Shown here in pieces: positions 7,486 to 35,470 of a DNA stretch of 64,000 bases. The DNA comes from Candidatus Bathyarchaeota archaeon. Lineage in GTDB: Archaea; Thermoproteota; Bathyarchaeia; Bathyarchaeales; Bathycorpusculaceae. Made by a program: the position numbers and the translations under genes. How positions within the stretch are numbered: position 1 is the stretch's first letter; every line of letters begins with the position of its first letter. The notes under the pieces were generated by a model. That model worked only from the letters and a program-made list of their open reading frames with translations. It was not told where the DNA came from and did not search any database. The DNA is taken from the NCBI GenBank assembly GCA_963833575.1, contig CAWHXY010000004.1:416001-480000 (forward strand), read 5' to 3'.

Positions 7486-7542
7486 TCACTTTTGTTTTTT
7501 CGGAAATGTCTTTTTGATTAATTCCCAGTTTAATTTAAACAT
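7486..7542 (-). CDS. Putative Lys-rich leader peptide MFKLNWELIKKTFPKKQK
   Basis: Manual translation; 6 of 18 residues are Lys, 5 in the last 9; stop lies 10 nt before the lysW ATG. Confidence 0.45.
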   Translation of the reverse strand: MFKLNWELIKKTFPKKQK

Positions 7543-7720
7543 TGTGACTTATTTGTTACAACTTGAACTTTTAATGTTCCATTTGGTGCAGTCATTTAGC
7601 GCTCGGAAGAGTTGAAAACGTAAAACAAACAAGCAACCACAACGAAAAACGCAAAATAACTATAATCCTTATAAGGTAAAGTGGTAGATTTAATGAAATC
7701 AAAACAACTCGGCGAAAAAA

Positions 7721-8131
7721 ATGGACGATACAGATAGGCAAATAATCAAACTCTTAAAAGAAGATGCAAGAGCTGGGTACGGCGAGATAGGCAATAAAGT
7801 AGGCTTATCTGAAGGTGCCGTACGGAAAAGAATCAAAACATTAACAGATGAAGGAAACATACGCAAATTCACAATTAAAATCAGCGTTGCAGAAGGCGCC
7901 CAAGCAATAACATTGCTTGCAACCAACCCTGCTAACCCAACACAGGAAGTTTCAAAGAAAATCCAAGCAATCCCCAACGTTGAAACTACGTATGAAGTCA
8001 GCGGCGAATACGACATCGTTGCAGTAATCAGCGGAATGAACATGACCGAAGTAAACGAATGCATAGAAAAAATCCGTATGGTTGGAGGCATAGTGAAAAC
8101 CAACACTATGATCGTATTGCGTAGCTCTTGA
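7721..8131 (+). CDS. Lrp/AsnC family regulator (LysM-like)
   Basis: N-terminal HTH (LSEGAVRKRIKTL) and VSGEYD RAM motif; divergent from the lys operon. Confidence 0.9.
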   Translation: MDDTDRQIIKLLKEDARAGYGEIGNKVGLSEGAVRKRIKTLTDEGNIRKFTIKISVAEGAQAITLLATNPANPTQEVSKKIQAIPNVETTYEVSGEYDIVAVISGMNMTEVNECIEKIRMVGGIVKTNTMIVLRSS

Positions 8132-8137
8132 CTACGT

Positions 8138-8190
8138 TTCTTTTTTTTTAATTGAGGTTTTTTTCAATAAAAAGTTAGGATTTTTTTTTC
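8138..8190 (+). terminator. Oligo-T tracts after the Lrp gene
   Basis: Several T runs of up to 9 nt just after the stop codon, matching archaeal intrinsic terminators. Confidence 0.5.
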
Positions 8191-8252
8191 TGTCTATATC
8201 TGATTAAAGTCAATCAGAATGAAATTTTTCAGCGAAGTTATTCGCGCAAAAC

Positions 8253-8588
8253 TCAAAAAAACAAAGACGCTTTGTCAACGATTTCAACATATATTTTTCC
8301 ATTTTGTACTTCACATCGGTAACTTGCCAATATTATCAATTTGTTTTCAGAATACTGTCCATTTCTTATGTCAAACTTCCAACCGTGACATGGACACATA
8401 ACTAAGTATTCATTGAGGATGCCTTTTGCGAGGGAACAGCCTTCATGAGGGCAATCATTCGAAACCCCAAAGATTTTTCCCTCTTTTCGAACCAACAAAA
8501 TAGACCTACCCTTAACTCGGACAGATTTCATTTGACCTTCTCTTAATTCACTTTCTTTCAAACATGAAACAAAATTATCTAAAACCAC
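8253..8588 (-). CDS. Rieske [2Fe-2S] ferredoxin
   Basis: CPHEG...CPCHGWKFD motifs. Confidence 0.9.
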   Translation of the reverse strand: MVLDNFVSCLKESELREGQMKSVRVKGRSILLVRKEGKIFGVSNDCPHEGCSLAKGILNEYLVMCPCHGWKFDIRNGQYSENKLIILASYRCEVQNGKIYVEIVDKASLFF

Positions 8589-8756
8589 AAAATCAAATCC
8601 TTGACAATTAATTATTTCTCATCTAAAGATTATGGTCTTCCCAGACTTTAGTCTTTCTTGTGTTCACGTGCCCAACAGAAATACTAAACATCTAATGAAT
8701 CGTAAGGTTTAATATACATTGATAAACTTCAAATTCATAAAGGCGGAGAGAAAAAA

Positions 8757-9398
8757 ATGAATGAAAAATTGCAGGAGAGCGCCCAATACCTAAAGTACTG
8801 CAGCATTATCGAAAATGAAACTTTTAAGCTCTACGAAACCTTCTCCAAAAAAATCAATCAGCCTGAAAACAATTTCATCTTAGGACTGGCCTACGACAGC
8901 TTAAAAAATGCAAAAATTATCCAGGGAATACTTGACTCTTTTGACCAACCAGAAACGGAAAATAGAAATGATAAGAAGAACCTATTGGAACTAACTGCGG
9001 AGATTAAGAACCTCACAAAGAAGATCTCTAAAATCAATAATATGAATTACGTGATTTCATATGAGATTCTAAAAGAATTCATTAACCTCGAAGACCTTCT
9101 CAGCGAAATTTACACAAACTATTTGCAATCAAGTGGAACAAAAGTTTTGGCAGACGAATTGTCAAAAGCAGTCGCTGTAAACCTTGGAAATTTCAAGAAA
9201 GTATTTGAAAACTTTGTAGAAGAAAAAGGAAAACATAGAGAAACGCTCATCGAAATCATATATTGCCTTGAAGCAAAAGAAACAGAAATACATAGGCAAA
9301 TAACTCCAACAGTTAAATATCAAAACCCTAGCGCATGGAATCATGAATCCACACTTCATGCTTTCTCGAACGCACCAGTCAAAGAAACCAGTCAATAA
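8757..9398 (+). CDS. Hypothetical helical protein, possibly ferritin-like
   Basis: 213-aa helical ORF with E...Y and EExxH-like patterns. Confidence 0.6.
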   Translation: MNEKLQESAQYLKYCSIIENETFKLYETFSKKINQPENNFILGLAYDSLKNAKIIQGILDSFDQPETENRNDKKNLLELTAEIKNLTKKISKINNMNYVISYEILKEFINLEDLLSEIYTNYLQSSGTKVLADELSKAVAVNLGNFKKVFENFVEEKGKHRETLIEIIYCLEAKETEIHRQITPTVKYQNPSAWNHESTLHAFSNAPVKETSQ

Positions 9399-9488
9399 AT
9401 ACAAGTCACGCAGGCAGTAAGTAGAAAATTAAGCTGATACATCAACTATACCAAATAAGTTTGGGCTCAAAAACAAATTTTCTTTTTT

Positions 9489-9892
9489 TTATAGACTATT
9501 CTCAATTGAAACGAGTTTTAGAACTCTAGGTTCAATTTCATCTCTGATTTCCGCACCTCACCTATGGATTTGCCTTTCGGGTCGTCAAGTTCCCAATCAA
9601 TATTTTCTTTGAAGAAGGGACCGGGACAAAAATCAGAGGTCCCACAGCCCATAGTGACAATTAGATCAGCTTGGTTTGCCATTTCCTGTGTGAGCAGTTT
9701 AGGCTTATTTCGGGATATATCGATACCATTTTCGCTCATTGCATCCACGACAACTGGGTTGACTTGTGAGGCTAGCTTCATTCCTGCGCTCTGTGCAGTT
9801 AATTTTCCTTGACCATACTTGTTGGCGAAGGCTTCAGCCATTTGACTTCTGCCAGCGTTTTCAACGCAAACAAACAAGACTTTTTTCATCAT
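9489..9892 (-). pseudogene. arsC: Arsenate reductase ArsC (LMW-PTP fold), frameshifted near the 3' end
   Basis: FVCVENAGRSQMAEA motif; adding one A at 9548-9550 restores ...EVRKIRDEIEPRVLKLVSIENSL*. Confidence 0.75.
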
Positions 9893-10172
9893 TAACCACT
9901 TTTTGATTTTTCTTATTCTTAACCAAAAAGCAATTTACTAAACTAATCATAACGAGTAATCTTTATTAAAGAATTATCAAGGATCGCCATTATATTGATC
10001 AAAGGCGGTCTAATTTTTTTAAGCCAATTGTTGCTGCAGAAGGTAATTAACAAAATCTTTTGCTTTCATCGCATTGTTTTATCTTATAATTCACTTTAAG
10101 CAAACCCTCCCCTGATCAGTATAGTCGTTTCTTGACTGACCTTTTAACTCCATTGAACCATACCCTGCACAA

Positions 10173-10418
10173 GTGGCTTATATGAAAAAGAAAACTATGC
10201 TCTTAATGACTGAAGAAGAGCTCTCTCTTGATTTAACGTTGCACGATGTTCCCGCCTCTCTTGTTGCCGAGTTTGCACAAAAAATCGTGAGACCTTACTA
10301 TAATGGAAACTTGAACGGTGCCATACAAGATCTAATCAACAAAGTGCTATCAGAACAGGATTACGTTTATTCGCATATAACTCACGTCAGAAAACCACCT
10401 AAACTGCAAAATAAGTAA
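10173..10418 (+). CDS. Small hypothetical protein
   Basis: 81-aa ORF; start uncertain. Confidence 0.6.
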   Translation: MAYMKKKTMLLMTEEELSLDLTLHDVPASLVAEFAQKIVRPYYNGNLNGAIQDLINKVLSEQDYVYSHITHVRKPPKLQNK

Positions 10419-10648
10419 ATTATTCTTTCTATGATATTGTGAAGAAAGCATTTTTCCCACCAAATTATTAATCAATTCAAAATTATGCCATGATTTTTTC
10501 AGTACCAACATTCAATTTGATGCTTCATCGAAGCATTTCACGTGAAGAAAAATGAAATGACACACTCAAAACGTTTCACATGAAAGCTGTCTTAAGAGGA
10601 AAGGCTTAATAGTTCTGAAGATAAAAATTTTCTTTATAGGCGTATTCT

Positions 10649-10930
10649 TTGGCGCTTTCACGAATGGAGAAGTATCTAGCCATCATCAGAGTCTTAGACA
10701 ACGAGGATTCAATAACGCAAAAACAAATCGTACTCAAGGCTGACATCAAATTATCTTCACCAAAAGAAACACTAAAGTTTTTAGTCCAACTAGAACTAAT
10801 AATCGAAAAAAGCCTTGGGAACAAGAAAGTGTATTCGATTACAGATAAAGGGCAAAAGTTGTGTGAATATTTCAGGTCCAAGGATGACGATTCGATATTC
10901 GGCGGAACCAACATAAGTCGAATTGATTAA
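10649..10930 (+). CDS. Winged-helix DNA-binding protein
   Basis: LKFLVQLELI...YSITDKG wHTH pattern. Confidence 0.8.
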   Translation: MALSRMEKYLAIIRVLDNEDSITQKQIVLKADIKLSSPKETLKFLVQLELIIEKSLGNKKVYSITDKGQKLCEYFRSKDDDSIFGGTNISRID

Positions 10931-11020
10931 AACGTTTGTTTTCCCGCTCTCATTTAATAAATCGGTATAAATCTCCATTGGAATTTCGCAAATTATTGAA
11001 GCAAGCGTAAAATGGAAAAC

Positions 11021-11329
11021 CTATTTGCCCAATTCTTGCTCTTCGTATTGCATGGACATGGCTTTGCCGTCTTCTATTATAGTAAGCGTTTTATCTAGTT
11101 GCGTAAAGAAGCTGATAACTGATGTTCCGCGAGAAGTATTTGCGTAAACTGTATTGCGTTTTCCAACCATGCGCTCTTCAATTAATCCTTGTTTAATCAA
11201 GAATTCCAAGTACCCTTTTACGGTGTTTGTTTCGACATTTGCTTCAACTGCAATATGTGATGCCTTCAGAGGCCCACTTTCTGCTAAGACCTTCAGAATG
11301 TCAACGTACATCTCTAATTTGGATCCCAT
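11021..11329 (-). CDS. Winged-helix DNA-binding protein
   Basis: SKLEMYVDILKVL...YLEFLIKQGLIEE...T.RG archaeal wHTH pattern. Confidence 0.85.
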   Translation of the reverse strand: MGSKLEMYVDILKVLAESGPLKASHIAVEANVETNTVKGYLEFLIKQGLIEERMVGKRNTVYANTSRGTSVISFFTQLDKTLTIIEDGKAMSMQYEEQELGK

Positions 11330-11520
11330 TTGTTGTTACCCGTTTTACAAGTAACCCGAAATCTGGTATTAACAATTTGTGCGTAGAAAAACTCACCCTA
11401 CGTTCGCTAAAACAAAATCATTCCAAACGAAAAATTGTCATGAAAAGCCAAACATCGTTTTGACCAAGAAACTATGACTTAATAGTTCAGATATTGCCAA
11501 AGAAACAGTTGTAACTAAAA

Positions 11521-12243
11521 TTAGATTCGTCTTGATCTTGTTTTCTGAATTTTTTCGACAGCATTTCCGGTTCCAACATAAGCGATATCTGTCAAACCAA
11601 TAAAAAACCCAGTTTCTATGACACCGGGAATCATCTTTACCGTAACCTCTAATTCGTCAGGTCTATTTATTTCACCAAAATATGAGTCCAAAATGACGTT
11701 CCCATTATCTGTTATAACTGGACCAAGCTTGCCTTTACTTTCGCGTACAACAGGTTTACCGCCAGCATCAATAATTTTTCGTTTTGCAAGTGAAATAGCA
11801 AATGGCAAAACTTCAATCGGCACAGACTGGTTATTTTCACCTAGCCGATTCACTTTTTTCTTCTCATCAGCAATTATAATGTTGAGTTTTGAGGCAGCAG
11901 CAACAATCTTTTCTCTTGCCAACGCTGCACCCATACCTTTGATTAAACTTAGTTCGGGGGTTATTTGGTCAGCACCATCAATTGTTAAGTCTATTTCTGG
12001 GTGCTCATCCAATGTTGTGATTGGAATTCCACAATCAACTGCTAACAAGAAAGCTTGATAAGAAGTTGGAATCCCCAAAACACTAAGTTTTTCATTTTTC
12101 GTGCGTTCTCCCAAAGCTTCTATGGCAAAAGCAGCTGTACTTCCGCTGCCTAAACCAACAATAAAGCCGTCTTTAACATGTTTCATCGCCTGTAAAGCTG
12201 CGTTGCGCTTGGCGTTTTGAATTGCATCAGGGTTAACTTTCAA
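11521..12243 (-). CDS. rpiA: Ribose-5-phosphate isomerase A
   Basis: GLGSGST, DGAD, KGMGAALAREK motifs. Confidence 0.95.
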   Translation of the reverse strand: MKVNPDAIQNAKRNAALQAMKHVKDGFIVGLGSGSTAAFAIEALGERTKNEKLSVLGIPTSYQAFLLAVDCGIPITTLDEHPEIDLTIDGADQITPELSLIKGMGAALAREKIVAAASKLNIIIADEKKKVNRLGENNQSVPIEVLPFAISLAKRKIIDAGGKPVVRESKGKLGPVITDNGNVILDSYFGEINRPDELEVTVKMIPGVIETGFFIGLTDIAYVGTGNAVEKIQKTRSRRI

Positions 12244-12973
12244 TTTCCATCTGCCCCAGTTTATCTAAAACTTTTTCAACTTCGCTTCTAATTGTATCTA
12301 TTCGTTTTTCAGCTTCAGTTTTAGCATCAGGTCTTTCCTCAGGCGGCTTTCGTTTCTTTTTGGGCTTTTCCTCATCCGCTTCAGTCTCTTCCTCTTCTTC
12401 AGCATCTTCAATCTTTTCCATCCGCGAAGGTGGCGTCTGATTGGGTAATCTTACAGGTATTTCTTTTATTGGTTTAACATCAATTTTGGTTCTAAGTTCA
12501 TCGACCTTAGAAGTTAATTCTCCGAAACGTTCGCTGAAGAGCTTCATTAAATCTTCTTGCATACCTTCAAGATCGTGCAAGGCAACAATAGTTTCATCTT
12601 TTGAGATAGATTCTTTGATGGACATCATTCTTGCTTTATAGCTTGCAGCAAGCTTTTCTCTTTCTTGCTCTGTAATTTTTCCTTCCGCTTGAGCTTCATA
12701 CAAGCGTCGGATTGCATCACTTAAAATTTCTCGTTCTAAATCAAGCATTCGCAACTCGTCTTTTGCGTTAGAAGCTGTGGATGTTTGAACGCTTTTTGAA
12801 ATTTTGAACGGTGAAGTGGAATAATCAAGACGTGAATCATCAGTTGTTTTTTGAGGTTTCTTTGGTTGAGGCTTTTTGCCTAATCGTCTCATGGCGTAAA
12901 TGACTATTCCAGCAGCGGCGATTATCACTACTGCAACTGCTATTACAGTTATAGGATCGTCATACCAAGCCAT
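12233..12973 (-). CDS. Membrane-anchored coiled-coil protein
   Basis: N-terminal TM helix, long charged helical body; overlaps the rpiA start. Confidence 0.8.
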   Translation of the reverse strand: MAWYDDPITVIAVAVVIIAAAGIVIYAMRRLGKKPQPKKPQKTTDDSRLDYSTSPFKISKSVQTSTASNAKDELRMLDLEREILSDAIRRLYEAQAEGKITEQEREKLAASYKARMMSIKESISKDETIVALHDLEGMQEDLMKLFSERFGELTSKVDELRTKIDVKPIKEIPVRLPNQTPPSRMEKIEDAEEEEETEADEEKPKKKRKPPEERPDAKTEAEKRIDTIRSEVEKVLDKLGQMEIES

Positions 12974-13073
12974 GCCAAGCTGTCCTCGGTATCTTGATTA
13001 TGTACCATTAATATATAAATTATACAAATTCCTTCTAGTTTTTTCGAAGTTTTAACCTTAATACCGATGTGCA

Positions 13074-13625
13074 CTATTCTATTTTGACTCGCTTAACCTG
13101 GGCTTTTTCGAGAATCCCAACAACTGGTAACGCAATAACAACCCCGATTATTCCTCCTAATACATTCCAGCCTGCCCAAACAGTTAAAGTAAACATAAGT
13201 GCAAGATTAAGAATAACGATTCCATTTACAACAGCAGCAACATAGGCGCAAACAATTGTCGTTAACACAACAATGCTGATGTTAACTGATTTTAGGTTAA
13301 CTCTGTGACGATTGACCAATAAAGCTAAATCAAATAAGAATGCCGCCGGTACAAAGCCTAATACGGGAAGCACTTGCGGATTGGCAAGAACCACAATAGC
13401 GGATCCAATAATACAGACAGCCGACGCAGCGCCATATTGACCTGTCGCCCAGATAACAAGAACAAGCATGAAAAAAATTATCAAACTGTGAACGACGGGC
13501 AAATGAAAAATAGCAAAGCCAAGCGGAGCAATTGTTAGGTTTAGAATAACCCAAAGTGCGCTGAAAATGCTGATTAGCGCGATGTTGACACTAAAACGGT
13601 TTCTTGTTGTTTGTTGGGTAACCAA
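13074..13625 (-). CDS. Integral membrane protein, ECF S-component-like
   Basis: 5-6 hydrophobic helices in 183 aa. Confidence 0.65.
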   Translation of the reverse strand: MVTQQTTRNRFSVNIALISIFSALWVILNLTIAPLGFAIFHLPVVHSLIIFFMLVLVIWATGQYGAASAVCIIGSAIVVLANPQVLPVLGFVPAAFLFDLALLVNRHRVNLKSVNISIVVLTTIVCAYVAAVVNGIVILNLALMFTLTVWAGWNVLGGIIGVVIALPVVGILEKAQVKRVKIE

Positions 13626-13776
13626 TTCAGTAACACTTCGTTAGACTTCAGCAATATCAGCAAACTAAAGTCTTTACATAACACCAGTTTAGAACAAACT
13701 AATAAATAATTAACCAAAGAAATCCCCAATAATGATGTCTTGCCAGAACACTCAACATTGACACGATCGCAGTTAA

Positions 13777-14155
13777 CTAACTACTGATGAATTAAGGATA
13801 CTGCTACTTAAAATCAGAGACAAAGCCCACTTACTTGGCCTAAAATTCTTACAGTACACACCAACGCAATACTGCAATTTTGACCCTATACAATTAGGCT
13901 TAGGCATCAAAACTTAAAGCTGCTATGATAAACGTTTGCGTTGGACCAAATGGCCAAATTTGTCCATGCCAAAGTTATTTTCAAACCTTAGGAAATATTC
14001 TTACTGATTCATGGGACAAGATTTGGGATAATCCTTTGGCGGTGAAACTCCGCAGTAGAGGTTATGTTGAACAAAAATGCAAGAGGTGTTCTCAATTGGA
14101 AGTTTGTGGTGGGGGATGCCCTTTGGAACTACAAAAACCGAGAGCATCAATGTAG
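13777..14155 (+). pseudogene. Remnant of a radical SAM/SPASM gene
   Basis: LTTDELR...YTPTQYCNFDPIQLGLGIKT*, then a frame change to AAMINVCVGPNGQICPCQSY...CKRC..LEVCGGGCP; no radical SAM core upstream. Confidence 0.7.
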
Positions 14156-14232
14156 TGAAACAGCATAATTTATCTTTTAGCAAGCCACCATTTCCTTCTT
14201 AATAGACAGCGTATTCGTGAGTTCAGAAAGAA

Positions 14233-15937: not shown

Positions 15938-15995
15938 AACATCACCAAGAATGTATTGCCAAGGATTTTAATGAAACTGCCTAAAAAATTATTTC

Positions 15996-17096: not shown

Positions 17097-17282
17097 TCAA
17101 GTTTTCACGGTTGAAAGGACAAGCCTTGTGTAGTTAACGTCTACTTCAACTATCTTGCAATTTTTGAATTCTTTGGCTTCGCCTAGTATGTTTTTAACTA
17201 TTACGTTGTCTCCTTCAATCTTACCGTAAATTACGTCTTTGAATTGTATTTCTCCATTGAGGATTACGTTAAATTCACACAT
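17097..17282 (-). CDS. CooT-family small nickel/RNA-binding protein
   Basis: MCE start, NILGE motif, 61 aa. Confidence 0.75.
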   Translation of the reverse strand: MCEFNVILNGEIQFKDVIYGKIEGDNVIVKNILGEAKEFKNCKIVEVDVNYTRLVLSTVKT

Positions 17283-17449: not shown

Positions 17450-17494
17450 GTACAGTTATGTTCTTTTAAGGACTGGTATTTAAGAGGAATTAAG

Positions 17495-17545
17495 ATGAGG
17501 GATCGTCACCTCAATAGCTGGGATCGTCGGGTACTTATTCTTTGA
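17495..17545 (+). CDS. Putative branched-chain amino-acid leader peptide MRDRHLNSWDRRVLIL
   Basis: GAGGA SD at 17484-17488; ends in Val-Leu-Ile-Leu then TGA; 97 nt upstream of ilvB. Confidence 0.6.
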   Translation: MRDRHLNSWDRRVLIL

Positions 17546-17575
17546 TTCGCCTAGGCACCCCTCTGAAAAATTACC

Positions 17576-17600: not shown

Positions 17601-17642
17601 CAAGACGACAGCATAGATAATTTTATAAAAGGAGACCAATAA

Positions 17643-19355
17643 ATGACCAAAATGTCTGGTGCAAAAGTACTAGTAGAATCCCTTGAACAACAAAATGTGG
17701 ACGTTATATTCGGCATCTTAGGCGGAGCAATCCTGCCAGTATACGATGCGTTATGTGGCAACGAGAAAATTAGACACATACTGGCACGACATGAACAGGG
17801 AGCGGCACATGCAGCCGAAGGCTATGCCCGAGCCAGCGGTCGAGTAGGAGTATGTATGGCAACTTCAGGACCAGGAGCCACAAACTTAGTCACTGGAATA
17901 GCAAATGCATACATGGATTCTTCGCCTATGGTAGCCTTAACAGGGCAAGTTCCCTCGACAGGCGTTAACTCTTCTTACATGATTGGCAGAGACGCTTTCC
18001 AAGAAGCAGACATCATCGGCATCACCACCCCAATTACAAAGCATAATTATCAGCCTCGGGCAATTGCCGAAATCCAACCGATGGTCAATGCCGCGTTCTA
18101 CATAGCATCCTCAGGCAGACCTGGACCAGTCCTAATTGACCTGCCAAAAAATGTGCAGTCGGACGTTGCCGATGTTGAGTTAGGAGTTACAGATAAAATT
18201 GAAGGAAGGGGTTACAAACCAGCAATCAGGCCAGATTTAGTTAAAATTAGCGAAGCAGCGGGTTTGCTCGCGGAGGCAGTGGAACCATTGATACTGGCCG
18301 GCGGAGGAACAATTTCTTCTAATGCATCTGACGAACTAATGCAAATGTCCGATTTGCTAATGGCACCAGTTGCAACAACTTTCATGGGCAAAGGTGCTTT
18401 TCCTGAAGGCCATCCCTTATCGCTTGGATGCATCGGGATGCATGGAAATCCAGCCGCTAACAGACTAATTGGTGAAGCTGACGTGTTGTTAGCTGTTGGG
18501 ACAAGATTTTCTGACCGTGCAACAGCCAACTTGGACACTTTTGCGCCTAACGCTAAAAAGATTCACATAGACATTGATGCTGCAGAAATCGGCAAGAATA
18601 TTGAAGTTGACGTTCCAATTGTTGGAGACGCAAAAGTATCGTTAAAACTATTGTATGATGCCGTGACAAAGAAGCTACCCAGAATGAAAGTCAGCGCATG
18701 GTCAAAACGTGTTAAAGAAGCTAAAGAGCAGTTAAGTCCGCTGCTAAAAGAAAGACCCAAAGACCTGGTTCCCAAAGCCTTACTAACTGAGCTTAGAAAA
18801 CTGTTACCCGTGGACACCATCGTTACCACCGAAGTGGGCCAAAACCAGATGTGGTCAGCACTGTACTTCCAAGCGTTGAAACCGAGAACCTTCATAAGTT
18901 CAGGCGGATTAGGCACAATGGGTTTTGGTTTTCCAGCAGCTATAGGAGCAAAAGTTGCCTGTCCAGACAAACCCGTCGTAGACATAGCTGGTGACGGCAG
19001 CTTCATAATGACTGAGCAAGAACTTGCTTGTTCAGTAGCTGAAAAAATTCCAGTCATAGTCATTGTGCTAAACAATTCGGTGCTTGGCATGGTTGCGCAG
19101 TGGCAAAGAACTCTCTACAATCGCCGTTACATGGCAGTAAACTTGGGTAAAACACCAGATATGGTTAAGCTGGCGGAAGCTTATGGAGCACAAGGCCTGC
19201 GAGCAAACTCAATTGAAGAATTCCAAAAAGCAGTTAAGACAGCGCTAAACAGTAATGTTACAACAGTAATCGATGTGCCCATTGGCTCAGAACAGGATGT
19301 TGTTCCATTTGTGCCTCCAGGCTGCGGTTTACCACAACAAAGAGGTGACTACTAA
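17643..19355 (+). CDS. ilvB: Acetolactate synthase large subunit
   Basis: RHEQGAAH, TSGPGATN, GDGSF TPP motif. Confidence 0.97.
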   Translation: MTKMSGAKVLVESLEQQNVDVIFGILGGAILPVYDALCGNEKIRHILARHEQGAAHAAEGYARASGRVGVCMATSGPGATNLVTGIANAYMDSSPMVALTGQVPSTGVNSSYMIGRDAFQEADIIGITTPITKHNYQPRAIAEIQPMVNAAFYIASSGRPGPVLIDLPKNVQSDVADVELGVTDKIEGRGYKPAIRPDLVKISEAAGLLAEAVEPLILAGGGTISSNASDELMQMSDLLMAPVATTFMGKGAFPEGHPLSLGCIGMHGNPAANRLIGEADVLLAVGTRFSDRATANLDTFAPNAKKIHIDIDAAEIGKNIEVDVPIVGDAKVSLKLLYDAVTKKLPRMKVSAWSKRVKEAKEQLSPLLKERPKDLVPKALLTELRKLLPVDTIVTTEVGQNQMWSALYFQALKPRTFISSGGLGTMGFGFPAAIGAKVACPDKPVVDIAGDGSFIMTEQELACSVAEKIPVIVIVLNNSVLGMVAQWQRTLYNRRYMAVNLGKTPDMVKLAEAYGAQGLRANSIEEFQKAVKTALNSNVTTVIDVPIGSEQDVVPFVPPGCGLPQQRGDY

Positions 19356-28545: not shown

Positions 28546-29818
28546 CTCCTATTTGTTTTAGATCAGTGAAGAACTGCGGATAAGACTTTCTAACGCACTC
28601 AGCATTTCGGATAATGGTTTTTCCTTCCGCGCCTATCGCTGCAACTGAGCAAGCCATCGCTATACGATGGTCATTGTGAGAATCGATCACTGCACCGTGC
28701 AGAGCGCAGGGACCTTCTATGGTTAAGCTGCTTTCATCTACCTTTATTTTTGCACCCATCTTTCCCAATTCAAGATAAAGTGACTTCAACCTATCTGATT
28801 CTTTAAGTTTAAGCCTTTGTGCCCCAGTTATTTTTGACGTACCTTCGGCAAAACACGCAAGCGCTGCACAAACGGGAACCAGATCCGGAATATTTCTTGC
28901 GTCAACGTCTATAGGCTTAAGGTGTACTCCCATTCCATTTATTTCAATGCTGTTATTGCAAACTTTTCCATCAATACCCATTTGTTTAAGGATACCAAGA
29001 ATTACTTTATCGCCCTGCACACTTTTGTATTCAAGATTGTTTAATTGTACTTTGGAGTTGGTTACGGCTGCGGCTGCGAACAGAAAGGAAGCTGAAGAGA
29101 AATCACCCGGAACCCTGCAGTCACACGGTTTATAGGATTGATTTGCCGGAATTTTTATTCGATTAAAGTTATCATGGATTTCAACCCTGATTTCATGTTT
29201 GGAGAGAACATCTAACGTCATTTTAACGTAATCTGAAGATTCAAGCGGAGTTGTCAAAGTGATTTCCGTTTCAACCTTTGCCATTGGGCAAGCAAACATT
29301 AAGCCAGAAATAAATTGCGAGCTAATATCGCCAACAATCGATGTCTCCCCTCCAAGAATCCCACCGCCCAATACAAAAACAGCGTCTTTGCCTCCGAACT
29401 TTCGTATTTGAGCTTTTGCACCGAGATCTTCAAGGCTTTGAAGTAGAGGTTCGATTGGTCTTCGTGTAAGAGAATCATGAAAAACTAGGATTGATGGATC
29501 AGGAGCTAAAGCGGCTACAGGGATCATAAAACGCAACGTAGCACCTGATTCGCCACAGTCAATAGGCTCTTTGGCGTTTGTGAGCGGGTGTGCACCGGTA
29601 ACTGTCCAGCATTCGTCAGCCGTTGCTACTTGCGCGCCTAAAGCGGTGATGGCTCGCAGTGTTGCTTGTGTGTCCTCGGATATGAGAGGGTTCGATACTT
29701 TGGAAATGCCGTTGGTTAGGGCAGCGGCTAAAAGCATTCTTTGTGTGTAAGATTTTGATGGGGAAGCACATATCTCGCCCTTTAAACTTTCTGTTTTTTT
29801 GATGGTTACATCAGTCAT
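28514..29818 (-). CDS. aroA: EPSP synthase
   Basis: SKSYTQR, SSQF, KESDR, DHRIAM. Confidence 0.97.
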   Translation of the reverse strand: MTDVTIKKTESLKGEICASPSKSYTQRMLLAAALTNGISKVSNPLISEDTQATLRAITALGAQVATADECWTVTGAHPLTNAKEPIDCGESGATLRFMIPVAALAPDPSILVFHDSLTRRPIEPLLQSLEDLGAKAQIRKFGGKDAVFVLGGGILGGETSIVGDISSQFISGLMFACPMAKVETEITLTTPLESSDYVKMTLDVLSKHEIRVEIHDNFNRIKIPANQSYKPCDCRVPGDFSSASFLFAAAAVTNSKVQLNNLEYKSVQGDKVILGILKQMGIDGKVCNNSIEINGMGVHLKPIDVDARNIPDLVPVCAALACFAEGTSKITGAQRLKLKESDRLKSLYLELGKMGAKIKVDESSLTIEGPCALHGAVIDSHNDHRIAMACSVAAIGAEGKTIIRNAECVRKSYPQFFTDLKQIGVEIVGGQFDR

Positions 29819-30693
29819 TTATCAATCACCTTAGCTTTCTCGCAGTTCAAATGCGTCTCCAAGATTTCTCCGCCGTATTTTTGTAGGGAGGCTCTCACTG
29901 AATCTAGTTTATCTTTGAATGTAACAGCCGTCACCGCTGGTCCTTTTCCACATAATCCAGCCGCTACTGCTCCAGCAGATAAAGCATCTAATGCTATTGC
30001 AGGGTTGTATCCTGAGGCGGAGGAGTAAATTAAGCCATTAAGCGTGAGTGCCTCCCATATTTTTCCCTCCAATGCAAGCGTATAAGCAATTTCGACAAGA
30101 GGTTTTATCGTTTGCAGCCTGATAACATTGGAGTTAGCCGTATAGGCTTTTTCCAGTGGTAAATGAAACAGCACTACTAAATCTTCCGCCAAAGGCAATT
30201 GTTTTACTATTTTACGTTTCAAATTATCAGTAATCACTATACCGCCGAAGTAAGAAGCGCAAGCATCATCAAGAGCGCCAGTTATTGTAACTTTCGCATC
30301 AAAAGCCGCTTCAACGCCCAGATTTATAACTTCTAAGTCATCAAGCTTTTCGCCTAGCGCGGCGGTAGATGCAAGAGCTACAGCGTTTGCCGCTGCACTG
30401 CTGCTTTTGAGTCCTTTGGCAGCGGGAATGTTGGACCAAGTTGTTATTTTTGCGCCAAAACTTTTGTCTAAACAGAATTTTTTCAGGACTCGGGATACCG
30501 TTTTTTCTACTAGAATGGTGCTTTCTTTTGAGTCCGAGGTTATTTCTGTTTTGAAAACATGAGGTTCATCGGTTAACATGACTTCAGCTTTAGTCCATAA
30601 ATCAACGCCAAAAGCTGCGCCTTTCCCGAGTGCAATGGCGTTAATGATTGTTGCAGCGCCATGAGTTATTGCCGTAGCCTTACCAGTCAACAT
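29815..30693 (-). CDS. aroK: Archaeal (GHMP-type) shikimate kinase
   Basis: GLKSSSA, TGALDDA. Confidence 0.92.
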   Translation of the reverse strand: MLTGKATAITHGAATIINAIALGKGAAFGVDLWTKAEVMLTDEPHVFKTEITSDSKESTILVEKTVSRVLKKFCLDKSFGAKITTWSNIPAAKGLKSSSAAANAVALASTAALGEKLDDLEVINLGVEAAFDAKVTITGALDDACASYFGGIVITDNLKRKIVKQLPLAEDLVVLFHLPLEKAYTANSNVIRLQTIKPLVEIAYTLALEGKIWEALTLNGLIYSSASGYNPAIALDALSAGAVAAGLCGKGPAVTAVTFKDKLDSVRASLQKYGGEILETHLNCEKAKVIDK

Positions 30694-31557
30694 TTACACC
30701 TTTAGCAAGTGATTAAGGGCTGCCTTTCTCATAACCTCTACTGGTGCATTGCACGCGGTCCAGATTTCAAAAGAGGCAGCGCCTTGATAAATTAACATTT
30801 CAACCCCACTTACTACTTTGGCGCCAGCCGCTTTGGAATCTTTAGTTAATTTTGTTTCAATTGGGTTGTACACTATGTCCATTACAGCTAAGTCAGGTTT
30901 CAACCATTCAGGCTCCACAAGGGTTTGGTCTACGTTTGGTTTCATACCGACTGAAGTGGCATTAATGAGCACGTCGGCATCAGCAAGATTATCTTTAAGT
31001 GAGACTGGCGAAAGGCTGCCGCCCTTGATTTTTTTGTTAAACTTTTGGCTTAAGAGATTAGCTAAACATTCTGCCTGTTCAGATGTGCGATTCAAAATTA
31101 CCAATTTATCTGCTTCCTGTGAAAGTGTGTAAGCAATGGCTTTTGCCGCGCCACCCGCTCCAAGCAACAATACTTTTTTGCCTCTCGGCTTAACGCCGTT
31201 CTGTTCAAGGGCATTTAGTGCGCCCACACCGTCAGTGTTAAAACCAAAAAGTTTTCCATCCTTATTTAAAATAGTATTGATTGAAGCTATAGTTTTAGCA
31301 GTCGGATCTGTCTCATCCAAATATTTGATGACCGCATTTTTGTGAGGCATGGTAACGTTTAACCCGTGAATATTCAAAGCACGCACACCATTTATTGCCT
31401 TTTCAACTTCAGCCGTTTTTACCTTGAAAGCCAAAAAAACATAATCAAGCTCTAATGCTTCAAACGCAGCATTCTGCATTATTGGGCTAAGAGTATGCTC
31501 AATAGGATTACCGATTACTCCACAAACCCTTGTTGTTCCCGAAACAACCATTTTCAC
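30694..31557 (-). CDS. aroE: Shikimate dehydrogenase
   Basis: NVTMPHK, NTDG, GAGGAA. Confidence 0.95.
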   Translation of the reverse strand: MKMVVSGTTRVCGVIGNPIEHTLSPIMQNAAFEALELDYVFLAFKVKTAEVEKAINGVRALNIHGLNVTMPHKNAVIKYLDETDPTAKTIASINTILNKDGKLFGFNTDGVGALNALEQNGVKPRGKKVLLLGAGGAAKAIAYTLSQEADKLVILNRTSEQAECLANLLSQKFNKKIKGGSLSPVSLKDNLADADVLINATSVGMKPNVDQTLVEPEWLKPDLAVMDIVYNPIETKLTKDSKAAGAKVVSGVEMLIYQGAASFEIWTACNAPVEVMRKAALNHLLKV

Positions 31558-32237
31558 TTTACCCCTAGAAGATCGTAAGCAGATCTCATTTCTTGAATAC
31601 TCATCTGTCCAGATGCAGTTTCGCTTCCCTGTTCAAGTGAAGCAAAAGTGAAGAAGGCACCAAACAATGGTGAGAGGAGCCTAGAGATTTTGCCTTTTTC
31701 GCCCATGCAGAAACAGACAAGTTTCAGGCTGCTTGGCTTAGAAGAAACGAAATTTAGCGTCGGCAGGTTGTCTTCGATTTTCTTTGCGGTTGTTACTATT
31801 TTGCAGACGTCCGCTCCACTGGAGAGTTCTTGTTCTAGAATCTTTTCTATTTCGGAAATGCTTAGTGCGCCGTCGAATTTGTGGTATGATACGATTGGTT
31901 TGGCGCCCAACTGCTGGATTTCATCGATTGTTTCTTTACATTTTGAGCTTGATAGGTCAACATCAACATATTCAAAGCCATTTTTAGCAGCGTTAAGTAA
32001 TGTTTCTTGACGTTCAGTTTCTGTCCCTGAGAAATTGCCGCTTTCGCTTCGCAGTTTGTTTGATGCGATCAGAGGAATTTTTGTTTTTTTGACAAGTTTA
32101 GACAGATTTCGGGAGGTTTCAAGATAGTCTAGTCGCACTTCGATGAAGTCTGCTTTGGCTTTTTCTGCTCTCTCAATTAGAGTTGACGCTTCATGATTGT
32201 TTTTTGGGAGAATCGAAACACAGATTCTCGCTGTCAC
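31554..32237 (-). CDS. aroD: Type I 3-dehydroquinate dehydratase
   Basis: EVRLD, SYH, CKIV, MG...SR. Confidence 0.92.
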   Translation of the reverse strand: MTARICVSILPKNNHEASTLIERAEKAKADFIEVRLDYLETSRNLSKLVKKTKIPLIASNKLRSESGNFSGTETERQETLLNAAKNGFEYVDVDLSSSKCKETIDEIQQLGAKPIVSYHKFDGALSISEIEKILEQELSSGADVCKIVTTAKKIEDNLPTLNFVSSKPSSLKLVCFCMGEKGKISRLLSPLFGAFFTFASLEQGSETASGQMSIQEMRSAYDLLGVK

Positions 32238-33277
32238 TTTTCGATCACCGTTTCTTCAGGCACGGATACGCCGAAGTGTCGGCCTCCTTTGGCAGATAAA
32301 TGCACTAGGACTTCATCATTTGGTTTTAGTTCTGTTACTGGTTTTGAGGTTTTCGGGGTAACCACGCGTATGGTCTCAGCGTTTTGAAGGATAGTTTTTA
32401 TTTTTGTACCGTCTGCCTCGGCTTCGATAAGGATTAGGGGCCTGAACTCAATTTTTGATCTGCCCACATTTGTTATTCTTGCTTTTCCTTCCCTGTTAAT
32501 GATTAAAACTTCGTCTCCAGCCTTCAACTCAGAGAGGTACCGAGTATTTTGCAGTGAAGTTAAGGTATAATGCGATGCAGGTCCGGCGTTAACTCGGAAA
32601 GGTCTAGATTGAACATAGGGATTTTCGTTTACTTCTGCTTCAACAAGGAAGAATCCTGCAGATTGGCACCCGACTAGCATTCCTTCGCCAGGAACCATCA
32701 AATCAACAGTGTCAACGCAGACTCTGGCTCCCGTACCGATTGGTTTGATAGATAAGACTTTTGCTGATGTGAGCGCTACTTTTGGCATCTGAGCCTTAAC
32801 TATTTTAGCGGTTTTCGCAAGCTCGTTGGAGTTCGATGTTTTCAATAAGACACCATCTGTTCCCAGTTCTAGGGCTTCAAGAACCACTTTAGCATCTTCT
32901 GCGGTTGTTACTTCGGCGATTAGTTTGCTTTTGCCACCATGAGCTTTAGCGATTAAGTTTTCAAGAGGAATCACTCGCCAATCTAGGCAGTTAATTATTA
33001 TGTAGTCAATCCCTAGTTCTGCTGCTTTTGCAGCTTTGTTTTCGTCTTCTTTTCCTCTTATGCTAATTTTGGTTGCAGTTACTTTGCCTTCATTTTTCAA
33101 TTGGGCAATTTTTTTCTCATTTAGTTCTGTTAGAAAGGTTATGTTTAATTTGTCAGACTTGTTACTTGCTTGTTCGCCGCTGAGAACTACATCAGCATTT
33201 TCATGGGCAAGACTAAGTAAATTCTCTTTTTCTTGCTGAGAAGCGGTTTGCTCTATTTCTACCCAGAGTTCCTTCAA
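32234..33277 (-). CDS. aroB': 3-dehydroquinate synthase II (archaeal)
   Basis: DWRVIPLENLIA, RVCVDT, RPFRVNAG, LQNAET. Confidence 0.93.
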   Translation of the reverse strand: MKELWVEIEQTASQQEKENLLSLAHENADVVLSGEQASNKSDKLNITFLTELNEKKIAQLKNEGKVTATKISIRGKEDENKAAKAAELGIDYIIINCLDWRVIPLENLIAKAHGGKSKLIAEVTTAEDAKVVLEALELGTDGVLLKTSNSNELAKTAKIVKAQMPKVALTSAKVLSIKPIGTGARVCVDTVDLMVPGEGMLVGCQSAGFFLVEAEVNENPYVQSRPFRVNAGPASHYTLTSLQNTRYLSELKAGDEVLIINREGKARITNVGRSKIEFRPLILIEAEADGTKIKTILQNAETIRVVTPKTSKPVTELKPNDEVLVHLSAKGGRHFGVSVPEETVIEK

Positions 33278-34065
33278 CTATGCTCACCAAGAATCTTGAG
33301 CGCCTGTTCTACGGTAACACCATCATGGACTATTGCTGAAAGAGCTTTGACTATCAAGGTTGGGGTTTCGTGTTGAAACACATTACGTCCAATTGAGAGT
33401 CCTGAAGCACCCGCTTTTAAGGCGTCATGTGTGGTTTGAAGGATTTCTTGTGATGTTTTGCATTTTGGTCCTCCCGCTATTACAACGGGGACGGGACAGC
33501 TTTCGATTACAGTTTTGAATGTTTCTATGTTACCTGTGAAGTTTGCTTTGATTATGTCAGCGCCTAATTCAGCGCCGATTCTTGCTGCATGCGCCACAAC
33601 ATCAGGGGCATGTTCATTTTGAATTTTTGGTCCACGCGGATACATCATTGCAAGAAGGGGCATGCCGAACAAGTCGCATTCCTCAGCCACTTTTCCTAAA
33701 GTGCTTAGCATTTTATCCTCGTCTTGTGCACCAACATTAACATGCACTGACACCGCATCTGCACCTAAGCGAATGGCTTCTTGAACAGAACATACTTGGA
33801 CTTTACCATTTATATTTGGACTAAGATTTGACATGCCTGATAACATTACTATTAGACCCGCGTTTCCGATGTCGACGTGTTTCGCTATGCCTTTGTGAAT
33901 AAGTATTGCATCAGTTTTGCCTTTGAGAAGCTGATTGATTATTTGTTGCATGTTAGCTATTCCTTGAATGGGGCCAACTGTCACGCCGTGATCCATCGGC
34001 ACGATTACTGTGCGGTTATCTGGTTGCATGATTCTTTTTAAACGTCGAGTTTTTCCTTGATTCAT
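33274..34065 (-). CDS. aroA': 2-amino-3,7-dideoxy-D-threo-hept-6-ulosonate synthase (class I aldolase)
   Basis: PMDHG, AELGADIIK, AGGPK, GRNVFQ; adjacent to DHQ synthase II. Confidence 0.88.
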   Translation of the reverse strand: MNQGKTRRLKRIMQPDNRTVIVPMDHGVTVGPIQGIANMQQIINQLLKGKTDAILIHKGIAKHVDIGNAGLIVMLSGMSNLSPNINGKVQVCSVQEAIRLGADAVSVHVNVGAQDEDKMLSTLGKVAEECDLFGMPLLAMMYPRGPKIQNEHAPDVVAHAARIGAELGADIIKANFTGNIETFKTVIESCPVPVVIAGGPKCKTSQEILQTTHDALKAGASGLSIGRNVFQHETPTLIVKALSAIVHDGVTVEQALKILGEHS

Positions 34066-34081
34066 CTTTAGTCACCTTTGT

Positions 34082-35329
34082 TTATTTAGCCGTCCTTAAT
34101 GAGTTTTTAATTAACTTCAAAGCCTTCTCACGTTCATTCCAATCCACAAAAAGCAGAATACTTGATGTTATGGTCAATATGCCTGAAATGTTTATCCCGT
34201 TGAGCCTGAGATCTTCACTAATTTTTCCAATTATGCCATGAGTTTCTTCTAAGCCGACACCGCTTGTTTTAATGAACACCAAGTCTTTTTTGACTGCCAT
34301 CGCAATGGTTTCTTTATTGCTCTTTGTAATGTCGTGGATATTATTGAAGAGCGTATCCAAGTTTTTCTCCTGAGAAACATAGAGTATGATCGAGTTTGTG
34401 TTCATTGACATGCCAAGTAAAAGGGAGTGCTGCTTTGTTTTTTCCACCATTTCTTGGATGATTTGCGGGTTTGCAGATATCCCGTTTCCAATTACCGTTA
34501 TTTCAGCAACTGGAAAAGGATGTGCAATTTCCGCGTCTAATTCGGCTGATAGTGCGCCTGTGATTACTGTGCCCTCTTTTGATATGTTGCCATGGGCGTG
34601 ATTGATTACTCGGACGTTGATGTTTTTGGGTTTGTACTTTAGAGCTTTGCTGTGAATGAATTTGGCTCCTGAATCGGCTAACCCTACCAGAGTGTTCACA
34701 TCAATTTGACTGAGGCGTTCGGGGTTGGAAACGATTTTGGGGTCACCTGACATTATTCCGTCCGCATCAGTTACTAAAACGATTTCATCAGCACCTAAAG
34801 CTTCTGCTAAGACAAACGCAGTCGTATCGCTTCCGCCTCTTCCAAGAGTCGTAATTTTGCCGTCTTTGGTTTTACCGAGAAACCCTGCAACTACAGGGAT
34901 CACTCCCCGTTCTATAAGAGGCAACACGCATTCACGAATATTCTTTTCACAATCTTTTAGGATTGGGTTCGCATTTTGAAATGCCGAGTCAGTAATTATC
35001 GGCCAATTGCTGTCAATTGGGTCAAAGTAGCAAGATTCTGCACCATTTGTTTTTAATGCTGCCGAGAATATTCTTATGCTGGTTCTCTCGCCCATCGACA
35101 GAATGTCATCTAAGTCTTTTTTCTCCAATTTCCCTTTGGAAGCATTTTTAGCTGTCGTCATGAGCACGTCAGTTGTTTTGCCCATGGCTGAAACAACGAC
35201 GGCGACTCGTGTGCCTTTTTTGGCTTCATTGATTACGGCAACCACCGCTTTTAAGAGCCTTTCGTGATCGGCTAAGCTAGAACCACCGAATTTAACGACA
35301 ATTGTCTTGTGAGAGGCAACTTTTTCCAT
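34082..35329 (-). CDS. Aspartate kinase
   Basis: VKFGGSS, VVSAMG, TLGRGGSD, C-terminal ACT domains. Confidence 0.93.
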   Translation of the reverse strand: MEKVASHKTIVVKFGGSSLADHERLLKAVVAVINEAKKGTRVAVVVSAMGKTTDVLMTTAKNASKGKLEKKDLDDILSMGERTSIRIFSAALKTNGAESCYFDPIDSNWPIITDSAFQNANPILKDCEKNIRECVLPLIERGVIPVVAGFLGKTKDGKITTLGRGGSDTTAFVLAEALGADEIVLVTDADGIMSGDPKIVSNPERLSQIDVNTLVGLADSGAKFIHSKALKYKPKNINVRVINHAHGNISKEGTVITGALSAELDAEIAHPFPVAEITVIGNGISANPQIIQEMVEKTKQHSLLLGMSMNTNSIILYVSQEKNLDTLFNNIHDITKSNKETIAMAVKKDLVFIKTSGVGLEETHGIIGKISEDLRLNGINISGILTITSSILLFVDWNEREKALKLIKNSLRTAK

Positions 35330-35348
35330 CTTGATACACCCGTGCTAT

Positions 35349-35386
35349 GCCCAGAACTTTTCCCGAAAAATCTTTTAGTTCTGGGC
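35349..35386 (-). promoter_or_regulatory. 10-bp perfect hairpin between the leader stop codon and the aspartokinase start
   Basis: gcccagaact (35349-35358) pairs with agttctgggc (35377-35386); U5 tract in the loop on the mRNA strand. Confidence 0.7.
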
Positions 35387-35470
35387 TTAAGGAAAATAAC
35401 TATAAAAATAGTAGTCGAAGCTAAGGACTTGTGATTTACTGTCTTCTTGGTTGCTTTTGCAATTGGACAT
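35387..35470 (-). CDS. Putative Phe/Tyr leader peptide MSNCKSNQEDSKSQVLSFDYYFYSYFP
   Basis: 27-aa uORF; 7 of the last 10 residues are Phe/Tyr, none in the first 17; precedes the aromatic operon. Confidence 0.75.
   Translation of the reverse strand: MSNCKSNQEDSKSQVLSFDYYFYSYFP

Follow-up and report, generated by a model that had tools for sequence, protein, structure and literature searches.

A conserved Phe/Tyr-codon leader upstream of the aromatic operon of Bathyarchaeia as a probable ribosome-sensing regulator

The subject of this study is a stretch of 64,000 nucleotides (hereafter the window) of Candidatus Bathyarchaeota archaeon (GenBank assembly GCA_963833575.1, contig CAWHXY010000004.1, positions 416,001 to 480,000), belonging to a genome of eight contigs, and in particular the short upstream open reading frame (uORF) that precedes its operon for aromatic amino acid biosynthesis. 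Our results revealed that this uORF, which ends in a run of Phe and Tyr codons just ahead of a predicted hairpin, has an in-frame counterpart at 67/67 loci of the gene ask, spread over 6 families and more than 30 genera of the order, and we consider it very probable that this aromatic leader is a cis-acting regulator of the operon which senses the ribosome translating it. As for the three amino acid operons of the window taken together, the likely joint explanation is that the aromatic uORF is the sole cognate-codon leader and works as a hairpin-gating regulator of the ask-aro operon (the 6-deoxy-5-ketofructose 1-phosphate (DKFP)/shikimate route) in Bathyarchaeia and other Thermoproteota, that the ilv operon carries a structured leader of a different kind, and that the lys frame is a by-product of its promoter.

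Leader-peptide attenuation is a textbook mechanism of bacteria, and it needs ribosomes that follow closely behind RNA polymerase. Archaea have a eukaryote-like polymerase, a U-tract termination that is independent of hairpins, and the termination factor FttA (aCPSF1). The aromatic leader bears on the question of whether archaea use the coupling of transcription and translation for regulation. A full-text search of the literature found no description of an archaeal amino acid leader peptide, and such descriptions may exist beyond that search; reviews of archaeal coupling and termination, in the sections available, mention attenuation only as a general consequence of coupling or do not use the term.

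An aromatic reading frame conserved upstream of ask

The operon and its uORF are located as follows.

Positions 35329-25193, minus strand: aromatic operon, with ask, aroA' (2-amino-3,7-dideoxy-D-threo-hept-6-ulosonate (ADH) synthase), aroB' (3-dehydroquinate (DHQ) synthase II), aroD, aroE, archaeal aroK, aroA, aroC, an aminotransferase gene and tyrA, as assigned by NCBIfam
Positions 35470-35387, minus strand: aromatic uORF, ATG at 35470-35468 and stop TAA at 35389-35387, 27 codons plus stop, encoding MSNCKSNQEDSKSQVLSFDYYFYSYFP with the tail SFDYYFYSYFP before the stop

By single-genome statistics alone, the aromatic uORF does not stand above chance. When enrichment was tested against the background of this A+T-rich genome, which comprises 5567 short open reading frames (sORFs) in 1877 upstream regions, it ranked about 45th of the 5567; at least 7 aromatic residues among the last 12 are found in 6 of these sORFs, and two comparably aromatic ones sit upstream of unrelated genes, namely those of a membrane protein and a secreted protein. 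It is therefore conservation that has to decide.

A search of 41 related genomes with the Ask protein gave 30 loci, and an in-frame uORF with ATG that ends in an aromatic run is present at all 27 of those where Ask is at least 50% identical (27/30 overall). The other three (L028-L030) are Ask paralogues, 37-46% identical and in another gene context, which the set of 67 loci leaves out. The order-wide search covered 301 genomes, 162 of which have Ask at E <= 1e-90, and the 40 upstream regions fetched from outside the genus of the window, from 31 genera and 6 families, all carry the aromatic uORF: 33 were flagged by the script and 7 more were recognised by eye, the latter having escaped solely through the selection rule of the script. 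Moreover, aroA' follows ask in 25 of the 27 related loci whose flank permits the check.

In the 67 leaders the last 12 codons hold a median of 7 codons for Phe, Tyr or Trp (minimum 4, maximum 9). When the best frame is picked in this way ahead of other genes of the same genomes, the median is 1 for ilvB (29 loci), 3 for lysW (24 loci) and 0 for hisG (29 loci). The aromatic fraction is 0.60 in the frame of the uORF and 0.09 and 0.16 in the other two frames. Among the 804 tail codons, 261 are for Tyr, 211 for Phe and 13 for Trp, and both synonymous codons are in use for either main residue (TTT 124, TTC 87; TAT 184, TAC 77). The composition is kept and the sequence is not: 66 of the 67 peptides are distinct, with lengths of 11-41 codons, 59 distinct 12-residue tails occur among them, and the variation of the aromatic run within the genus peaks at codon position 3. 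A pattern of this kind is what selection for the Phe and Tyr codons themselves, within a frame that is translated, would be expected to leave; neither a nucleotide motif rich in U nor a peptide of defined sequence would be expected to produce it.

The aromatic leader is not confined to the order. When 401 genomes of the whole phylum were searched, Ask was present at E <= 1e-70 in 104; 20 loci were fetched, 7 from other orders and 13 from other classes, and at least 5 aromatic residues among the last 12 codons were found at 13 of them (at least 6 at 9 of them). For example, tails such as NPYYYYYYYCFF, FFGYFYFYYFK and FGFFYGFYFYFYFGP run directly to the stop, and in 11 of the 13 aromatic-rich loci the predicted pairing begins at most 1 nt after the stop codon.

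Two groups among these distant loci deserve mention on their own. In L227-L230, from other classes, the last codons Gly-Pro and the sequence after the stop read GGTCCC-TAA-GGGGACC, so that a small hairpin, placed at the foot of the larger one, would have the stop codon in its loop, which is a different placement of the structure. In L224-L226, from family f13 of the same class, the ask upstream regions share a GGTGA..GGAGG...GTTTAC block and a moderately aromatic short open reading frame (VV.RR.YVF...) with no stop-adjacent hairpin, which may represent a diverged leader or a different one.

A preliminary description of the window had proposed that all three of its amino acid operons, aromatic, ilv-leu and lys, are preceded by a uORF whose last codons match the cognate amino acids. 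The names given to the operons agree with the NCBIfam assignments and the three short frames are indeed there; as a cognate-codon leader, only the aromatic one stood up to the comparison, and at this operon the idea of a ribosome-sensing leader is well supported and reaches further than had been supposed, across the order and beyond it. Thus a conserved run of cognate codons in the 5' leader, the mark of leader-peptide attenuators, was found at the aromatic uORF and at neither the ilv nor the lys frame. In this genome no Trp-rich uORF was found upstream of trpE, and no other cognate leader was found by a genome scan of 187 sORFs with a stop-adjacent hairpin.

Architecture of the aromatic leader

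The conservation of the aromatic leader, its reading frame and its geometry are read directly from the aligned loci. In the window, its elements on the minus strand are the following.

Positions 35509-35526, minus strand: predicted transcription factor B recognition element (BRE) and TATA box CCGAAACGCTTATATTTT, near-invariant in 23 same-genus sequences
Positions 35476-35483, minus strand: element GTTCGAAGC of the 5' untranslated region (5' UTR), putative 5' strand of helix P1, conserved in the genus alignment and complementary to the Ser-Phe-Asp codons
Positions 35414-35422, minus strand: AGCTTCGAC, the codons Ser-Phe-Asp, putative 3' strand of helix P1 and start of the aromatic run
Positions 35386-35349, minus strand: predicted hairpin P2, GCCCAGAAC ... 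GTTCTGGGC, directly 3' of the stop codon, minimum free energy (MFE) -16.4 kcal/mol
Positions 35366-35370, minus strand: U-tract TTTTT on the 3' side of the apical region of the hairpin, 17-21 nt after the stop
Positions 35337-35341, minus strand: Shine-Dalgarno-like (SD-like) GGGTG of ask, 7 nt past the hairpin

From the TATA geometry and the usual archaeal spacing, transcription is predicted to start about 16 nt 5' of the ATG of the uORF. The aromatic run has a fixed position relative to the stop at all 67 loci, with its first codon 8-13 codons and its last codon 1-3 codons ahead of it. The MFE hairpin starts 0-5 nt past the stop in 65/67 loci with a median of -16.7 kcal/mol, and when the 60 nt past the stop are compared with dinucleotide shuffles the median z-score of the MFE is -2.37, with 44 of the 67 loci below -2. 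Its basal arm pairs comprise 37 distinct ones, and at least 8 unrelated stem sequences occur, all of them complementary, which amounts to covariation of the whole stem. Within the genus, variants of the 5' arm (C to U, A to G) retain G-U pairs on the sense strand only. The hairpin pattern was found once in the genome. The first run of at least 4 T past the stop, present in 61/67 loci, ends at a median of +23 nt (interquartile range 22-26) and always lies on the descending side near the apex, facing an A-rich ascending side. In 63/67 loci an SD-like motif lies 3' of the hairpin, at a distance of 0-9 nt (median 5).

Besides the hairpin P2, a second helix can be drawn by eye, and it varies by lineage: in the family of the window it pairs the 5'-UTR element GTTCGAAGC with the Ser-Phe-Asp codons, in other genera early codons of the uORF with codons of the aromatic run (11-13 bp), and in other families one arm of the hairpin finds its complement in a segment of the 5' UTR. 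The AGCTTCG within the Ser-Phe-Asp codons is invariant in 22/23 same-genus sequences, and it fixes a TTC codon for Phe, though TTT is the commoner Phe codon of the leaders. Wobble-compatible variants of the 5'-UTR element were likewise noticed by eye.

A scan of the window with Rfam at the gathering thresholds returned 2 tRNAs only, and scans of the ilv and aromatic leaders by E-value returned best values of 2.1-8 from unrelated families, 2.8 being the best for the aromatic leader; Rfam includes the leader families of bacterial amino acid operons.

Proposed mechanism and alternative explanations

How the aromatic leader may work can be approached by a footprint model, in which a ribosome masks positions -15 to +12 around its A site. 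The median base-pair probability of the hairpin is then 1.00 on naked RNA or with a ribosome at the first aromatic codon (at least 0.8 in 59/67 loci). It falls to 0.18 when the last aromatic codon is occupied and to 0.00 when the ribosome sits at the stop (at most 0.2 in 66/67), an outcome that is partly built in by the imposed masks. In the model, therefore, the structure forms or not according to where the ribosome stands near the leader's end, and the hairpin would indicate whether the Phe/Tyr run already lies behind the leading ribosome.

We suggest the following course of events, in which the translation of the uORF, the output and the polarity are our reading of the geometry. The supply of charged tRNA-Phe and tRNA-Tyr would set the position of the leading ribosome. 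A ribosome that arrives at the stop codon would cover the 5' arm and no hairpin would form, whereas an early stall within the aromatic run, or the lack of any ribosome, would allow it to form. Our preference is for the hairpin as the "on" state, that of anti-termination. The model for this is region 2:3 of bacterial attenuators, whose start is likewise near enough to the leader stop for a ribosome standing there to cover it. Archaeal termination relies on the U-tract and not on a hairpin; the "on" hairpin would close around the U-tract region and so remove it from termination that depends on the U-tract or on aCPSF1/FttA. When Phe and Tyr are plentiful, the ribosome would be parked at the stop and the U-tract (+16 to +23) would be extended RNA between ribosome and polymerase, leading to premature termination. 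The factor aCPSF1 binds terminator U-tracts and cooperates with them (PMC8716108), and FttA is located where the RNA exits the polymerase (PMC11616081). We hold this specific termination model, with the hairpin as the "on" state and termination by U-tract and FttA, only tentatively, and would rather expect some part of it to need revision.

Several observations weigh against this picture, in addition to the part of the footprint result that the masks impose. All genomes compared are metagenome-assembled genomes (MAGs), the relatives are non-independent samples, and the fetched loci were picked by the analyst. Even with the hairpin formed, the prediction leaves most of the U-tract unpaired (median pairing 0.30 versus 0.18). 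Aromatic codons that reach to 1-3 codons from the stop at every locus are not needed by an anti-terminator. No fourth segment and no alternative terminator hairpin was found, and of the mutually exclusive set of terminator and antiterminator (1:2, 2:3, 3:4) no partner for a 3:4 pairing was found at the 67 loci; the remark of the preliminary description that there is no textbook 1-2-3-4 structure is thus borne out at this leader, which has a single stop-adjacent hairpin. A run of at least 4 T past the hairpin exists in 13/67 loci, the window not among them, and these 13 resemble a terminator of the bacterial type, which would have the opposite polarity. There is no systematic switch by sequestration of the SD, since among 63 loci the predicted accessibility drops by at least 0.3 in 7 and rises by at least 0.3 in 5. 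Finally, contigs of relatives from one wetland metatranscriptome (31/40 at 90-95% likeness) span much of the aromatic operon and leave the bins 35242-35558, which hold the leader, and 34291-34924, which hold most of ask, uncovered.

Two simpler schemes were discarded in the course of this analysis. That the hairpin hides the U-tract by pairing finds no support in the pairing probability of the U-tract, and as the U-tract is mostly unpaired, its hiding cannot mean simple base pairing. That the freed 3' arm sequesters the SD of ask finds none in the accessibility of the 63 loci.

Because the U-tract is predicted to be mostly unpaired, the SD shows no systematic switch and T runs follow the hairpin in 13 of the 67 loci, an output at the level of translation is a serious alternative, if an unlikely one. 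Here a ribosome stalled on the last aromatic codons would melt the hairpin and so favour initiation at ask, as in erm and cat leaders, or terminating ribosomes would be carried over the base of the hairpin to the start of ask, by termination and reinitiation or by a shunt-like passage. The short distance from the hairpin to the SD of ask speaks for it, as do the aromatic codons that run almost to the stop, with the hairpin largely open under a ribosome on the last of them, and the lack of a U-tract past the hairpin in the window. Yet the stem does not include the SD, whose predicted accessibility shows no systematic change, an early stall would leave the hairpin closed, and reinitiation would raise ask under an ample supply of Phe and Tyr, the reverse of what a biosynthetic operon calls for; moreover, a U-tract conserved in position would stay unexplained. 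Quite improbable, in our view, is an arrest peptide that senses a ligand in the manner of TnaC or SpeFL, in which the ribosome would be arrested at the stop codon by free Phe or Tyr within its exit tunnel, with the hairpin open and the operon off. The sign of regulation would be right, the uORF always ends 1-3 codons past an aromatic residue, and the tails of the genus often close with Phe-Pro-stop; known arrest peptides, however, depend on specific residues, whereas across the families the leaders have no fixed motif and keep composition alone, as the diversity of their 12-residue tails attests.

The aromatic frame might also be a side effect of a U/A-rich motif of RNA or DNA, such as a protein site or an inverted-repeat operator, or it might encode a small functional protein, in either case without any sensor. 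In fact the hairpin is also an inverted repeat of the DNA around an A/T-rich centre, and AGCTTCG is conserved at the nucleotide level. We nevertheless regard this as very improbable, for the enrichment is confined to one frame and persists through C-ending codons in lineages of higher GC content, the frame stays open and retains an in-frame start upstream in spite of the varied lengths, the N-terminal part is unconserved, and the arm variants are compatible with G-U pairs on the sense strand only. As the hairpin is single in the genome, a repeated DNA operator of a regulon was rejected. Scarcely tenable, lastly, is the view that all three operons are under cognate-codon leader peptides. Each operon of the window is preceded by a short frame with cognate residues in its tail, but the comparative data treated below tell against the ilv frame, whose tail is variable and whose counts of Ile, Leu and Val codons do not exceed those ahead of lysW or hisG, and against the lys frame, whose ATG lies in the BRE/TATA region, whose frame is often lost or truncated and whose Lys codons fall in an A-rich 5' UTR; the scan of the genome for the same architecture gave no other cognate leader, Trp included. 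A ribosome-sensing leader at the aromatic operon thus remains the reading that we prefer.

Relation to known leader systems

The aromatic leader follows the logic of bacterial attenuators, and it differs from them in the domain of its host, in its architecture and in its likely termination machinery. As in the leaders of pheL-pheA, trpL, hisL, leuL, thrL and ilvL, a short open reading frame with a run of codons for the end product stands just upstream of the first biosynthetic gene, and the RNA structure starts close enough to the leader stop for a ribosome there to reach it. In the phe leader of E. coli, the Phe codons likewise extend up to the penultimate codon. Unlike these, the aromatic leader occurs in archaea behind an archaeal promoter; in place of the set 1:2/2:3/3:4 it has one hairpin abutting the stop, with no terminator hairpin and U-run in the window; its U-tract lies inside the hairpin and the SD of ask follows closely; it has no match among the Rfam families; and it would sense Phe and Tyr jointly at the head of an operon that begins with ask-aroA'/aroB' of the DKFP route.

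Other systems offer partial likenesses. In the tna operon, with TnaC and Rho, the ribosome retained at the leader's end controls whether a termination factor can reach the nascent RNA just downstream, and by analogy FttA/aCPSF1 would take the part of Rho here. TnaC, however, responds to free Trp by means of a particular peptide sequence, and the operon that it induces is catabolic, whereas the aromatic leader keeps only a composition and heads a biosynthetic one, and the role of FttA is our supposition. In erm, cat and pyrBI, too, the position of the ribosome that translates the leader blocks or permits an adjacent hairpin; but the SD of erm and cat is inside the hairpin, while that of ask is outside it and its predicted accessibility does not switch, so that the aromatic leader does not fall among the translational attenuators that sequester the SD, and pyrBI senses UTP through pausing of the polymerase and not the charging of tRNA.

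A bolder proposal would be that the aromatic leader is the first family of leader-peptide attenuators in archaea, ancient and Thermoproteota-wide, working by a single hairpin and by termination through U-tract and FttA, with the "MRD" leaders of ilv and his (see below) as a second, unrelated class; we see the case for it as nearly evenly balanced, with a slight lean to the negative. If true, it would provide direct genomic evidence that archaeal coupling is used for gene control. With its occurrence in more than 30 genera and its simple order of uORF, stop, hairpin, U-tract and SD, the aromatic leader is a compact natural object on which the interplay of ribosome, polymerase and FttA could be tested. 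It also improves the annotation of Bathyarchaeia genomes, and it illustrates that comparative genomics is able to recover such elements from uncultured lineages.

The ilv leader and a similar his leader

The elements found upstream of ilvB are as follows.

Positions 17643 onward, plus strand: ilv operon, ilvB onward, as assigned by NCBIfam
Positions 17495-17545, plus strand: ilv uORF, encoding MRDRHLNSWDRRVLIL up to the stop
Positions 17483-17545, plus strand: core of the ilv leader, made up of the SD AGAGG at 17483-17487 and the uORF
Positions 17499 and 17520, plus strand: direct repeats GGGATCGTC of the ilv leader, 21 nt apart
Positions 17550-17554, plus strand: downstream block CCTAG, complementary to CTGGG at 17518-17522
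Positions 17560-17564, plus strand: downstream block CCTCT, complementary to the SD of the uORF
Positions 17604-17608, plus strand: downstream block GACGA, complementary to TCGTC at 17503-17507

The leader itself is well conserved, for in 29 of 30 loci from 7 families an SD (AGAGG or GGAGG) is followed after 6-9 nt by (A/G)TGAGGGAT, at 132-179 nt ahead of ilvB. Within the genus the first 39 nt are near-invariant and it is the last three codons that vary: among 23 same-genus loci they read LIL in 7, QLF in 4, QLL, HFY and FIL in 2 each, and LVL, QIS, QIL, LFC, LFL and PRN once each. The VLIL tail of the window, which had been put forward as a sensor of Ile, Leu and Val, is thus not a conserved feature, since the tail consists of these residues alone in 8/23 loci; nor are their codons enriched, the median number among the last 12 codons under the same scoring being 4 upstream of ilvB, 3 upstream of lysW and 4 upstream of hisG. 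In distant families the ilv uORFs are Arg-rich, for example VRDNRVRGNRFLHR and VRDRFLNRHR. Moreover, the substitutions in the ilv uORF fall mostly at codon position 1, with an entropy of 3.05 against 1.18 at position 3, which is not the pattern of a protein-coding constraint.

The long-range helices formed with the downstream blocks are 85-97% paired across the sequences, and two of the pairs are changed on both sides, in 4 and 3 sequences, which points to an RNA structure; the support is moderate, because the helices were derived by eye from these same sequences, and RNAalifold applied to the ilv leader alone gave no double-sided covariation. On our reading of these alignments, the ilv element is a structured regulatory leader with a short, probably translated open reading frame, and not a sensor of branched-chain codons.

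A similar uORF, M(M)RDCVHTRRLxS(L/F)..., was noticed outside the window, 166 nt ahead of hisG (L131:1335-1400, near 495035 of contig C4 of genome G000). It opens with the same ATGAGGGAT as the ilv leader, is present in 24/25 same-genus loci with synonymous third-position changes, and appears as GTGAGGG(A/G)T... in 3/5 loci of other families; its single conserved His codon sets it apart from the classical His-run leaders. The ilv and his "MRD" leaders may represent a second class of archaeal leader element. Both hold tandem direct repeats about two helical turns apart (17499-17528 in the window, about 1340-1375 in L131), that of his being GATTGCnTTCAT, twice, 19 nt apart, and the GAGGGATC immediately past the start codon is similar to a Shine-Dalgarno sequence. 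The two modules of the ilv leader have changed places in distant families. Candidate readings of the ilv and his leaders include one cognate codon at position 6, a pause of the ribosome at the internal SD-like GAGGGAT, an element resembling a T-box, an arrest peptide that relies on paired Arg residues, and a DNA operator formed by the direct repeats. A 61-residue open reading frame on the minus strand upstream of the ilv leader (17097-17282) has no match in NCBIfam.

The lys frame and the lysW promoter

At the lys operon the following features lie close together.

Positions 7475 onward, minus strand: lys operon, lysW, lysX, lysY (argC), lysZ, lysJ and lysK, as assigned by NCBIfam
Positions 7542-7486, minus strand: lys uORF, ATG at 7542-7540 and stop TGA at 7488-7486, encoding MFKLNWELIKKTFPKKQK up to the stop
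Positions 7507-7561, minus strand: lysW promoter region with conserved blocks
Positions 7553-7561, minus strand: conserved near-palindrome TTGTAACAA, a probable LysM box, about 10 nt upstream of the BRE
Positions 7532-7539, minus strand: BRE and TATA box TTTAAATT of the lysW promoter
Position about 7507, minus strand: predicted transcription start at the conserved GACATTTCC of the lysW promoter
Positions 7721-8131, divergent from lysW: gene of a LysM-like regulator of the Lrp type, as assigned by NCBIfam

The short frame ahead of lysWXYZJK, with its KKTFPKKQK tail, had been taken for a Lys leader, an interpretation that fails on comparison. Its ATG is formed by the 3 nt directly ahead of the conserved TTTAAA box, inside the BRE/TATA region, and the spacing from TTTAAA to CATTTCC is 29-31 nt in 22 of 24 same-genus loci, which is the distance from a TATA box to an initiator. 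In these 24 loci, an ATG with at least 16 codons is present in 15, an ATG with at most 10 codons in 6, and ACG or ACA in place of the ATG in 3, so that the frame is lost or truncated in 9/24, and its Lys codons coincide with the A-rich 5' UTR. Judged by these alignments, the lys uORF merely arises as a by-product where a promoter of probable LysM type adjoins this A-rich 5' UTR.

The LysM-like protein matches NF040947 with E = 3.8e-48 and an NCBIfam score of 162.7, which is below the curated cut-off of 180. In Sulfolobus, LysM binds 11 bp upstream of the BRE/TATA of lysW (PMC3597687), and the arrangement described there resembles that of the window, with a gene of the Lrp-type LysM kind adjoining lysW, a near-palindrome just upstream of the BRE/TATA and a short 5' UTR; the two differ in that the regulator gene is here divergent and not upstream in the same direction.

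Two further observations concern this region. In three related genomes the lysX homologue is in two pieces or has in-frame stops (L016/L085-L086, L012/L082+L087, L010/L084+L088), which may reflect frameshifts or errors of MAG assembly. In addition, the intergenic region between lysM and lysW holds further conserved boxes at 7600-7720, CGGATTTCGTTG and AATTTAACG(A/T)TTTCC, which resemble the half-site patterns of Lrp and other feast/famine regulatory proteins (FFRP) as given in PMC2715240, and which may be autoregulatory sites.

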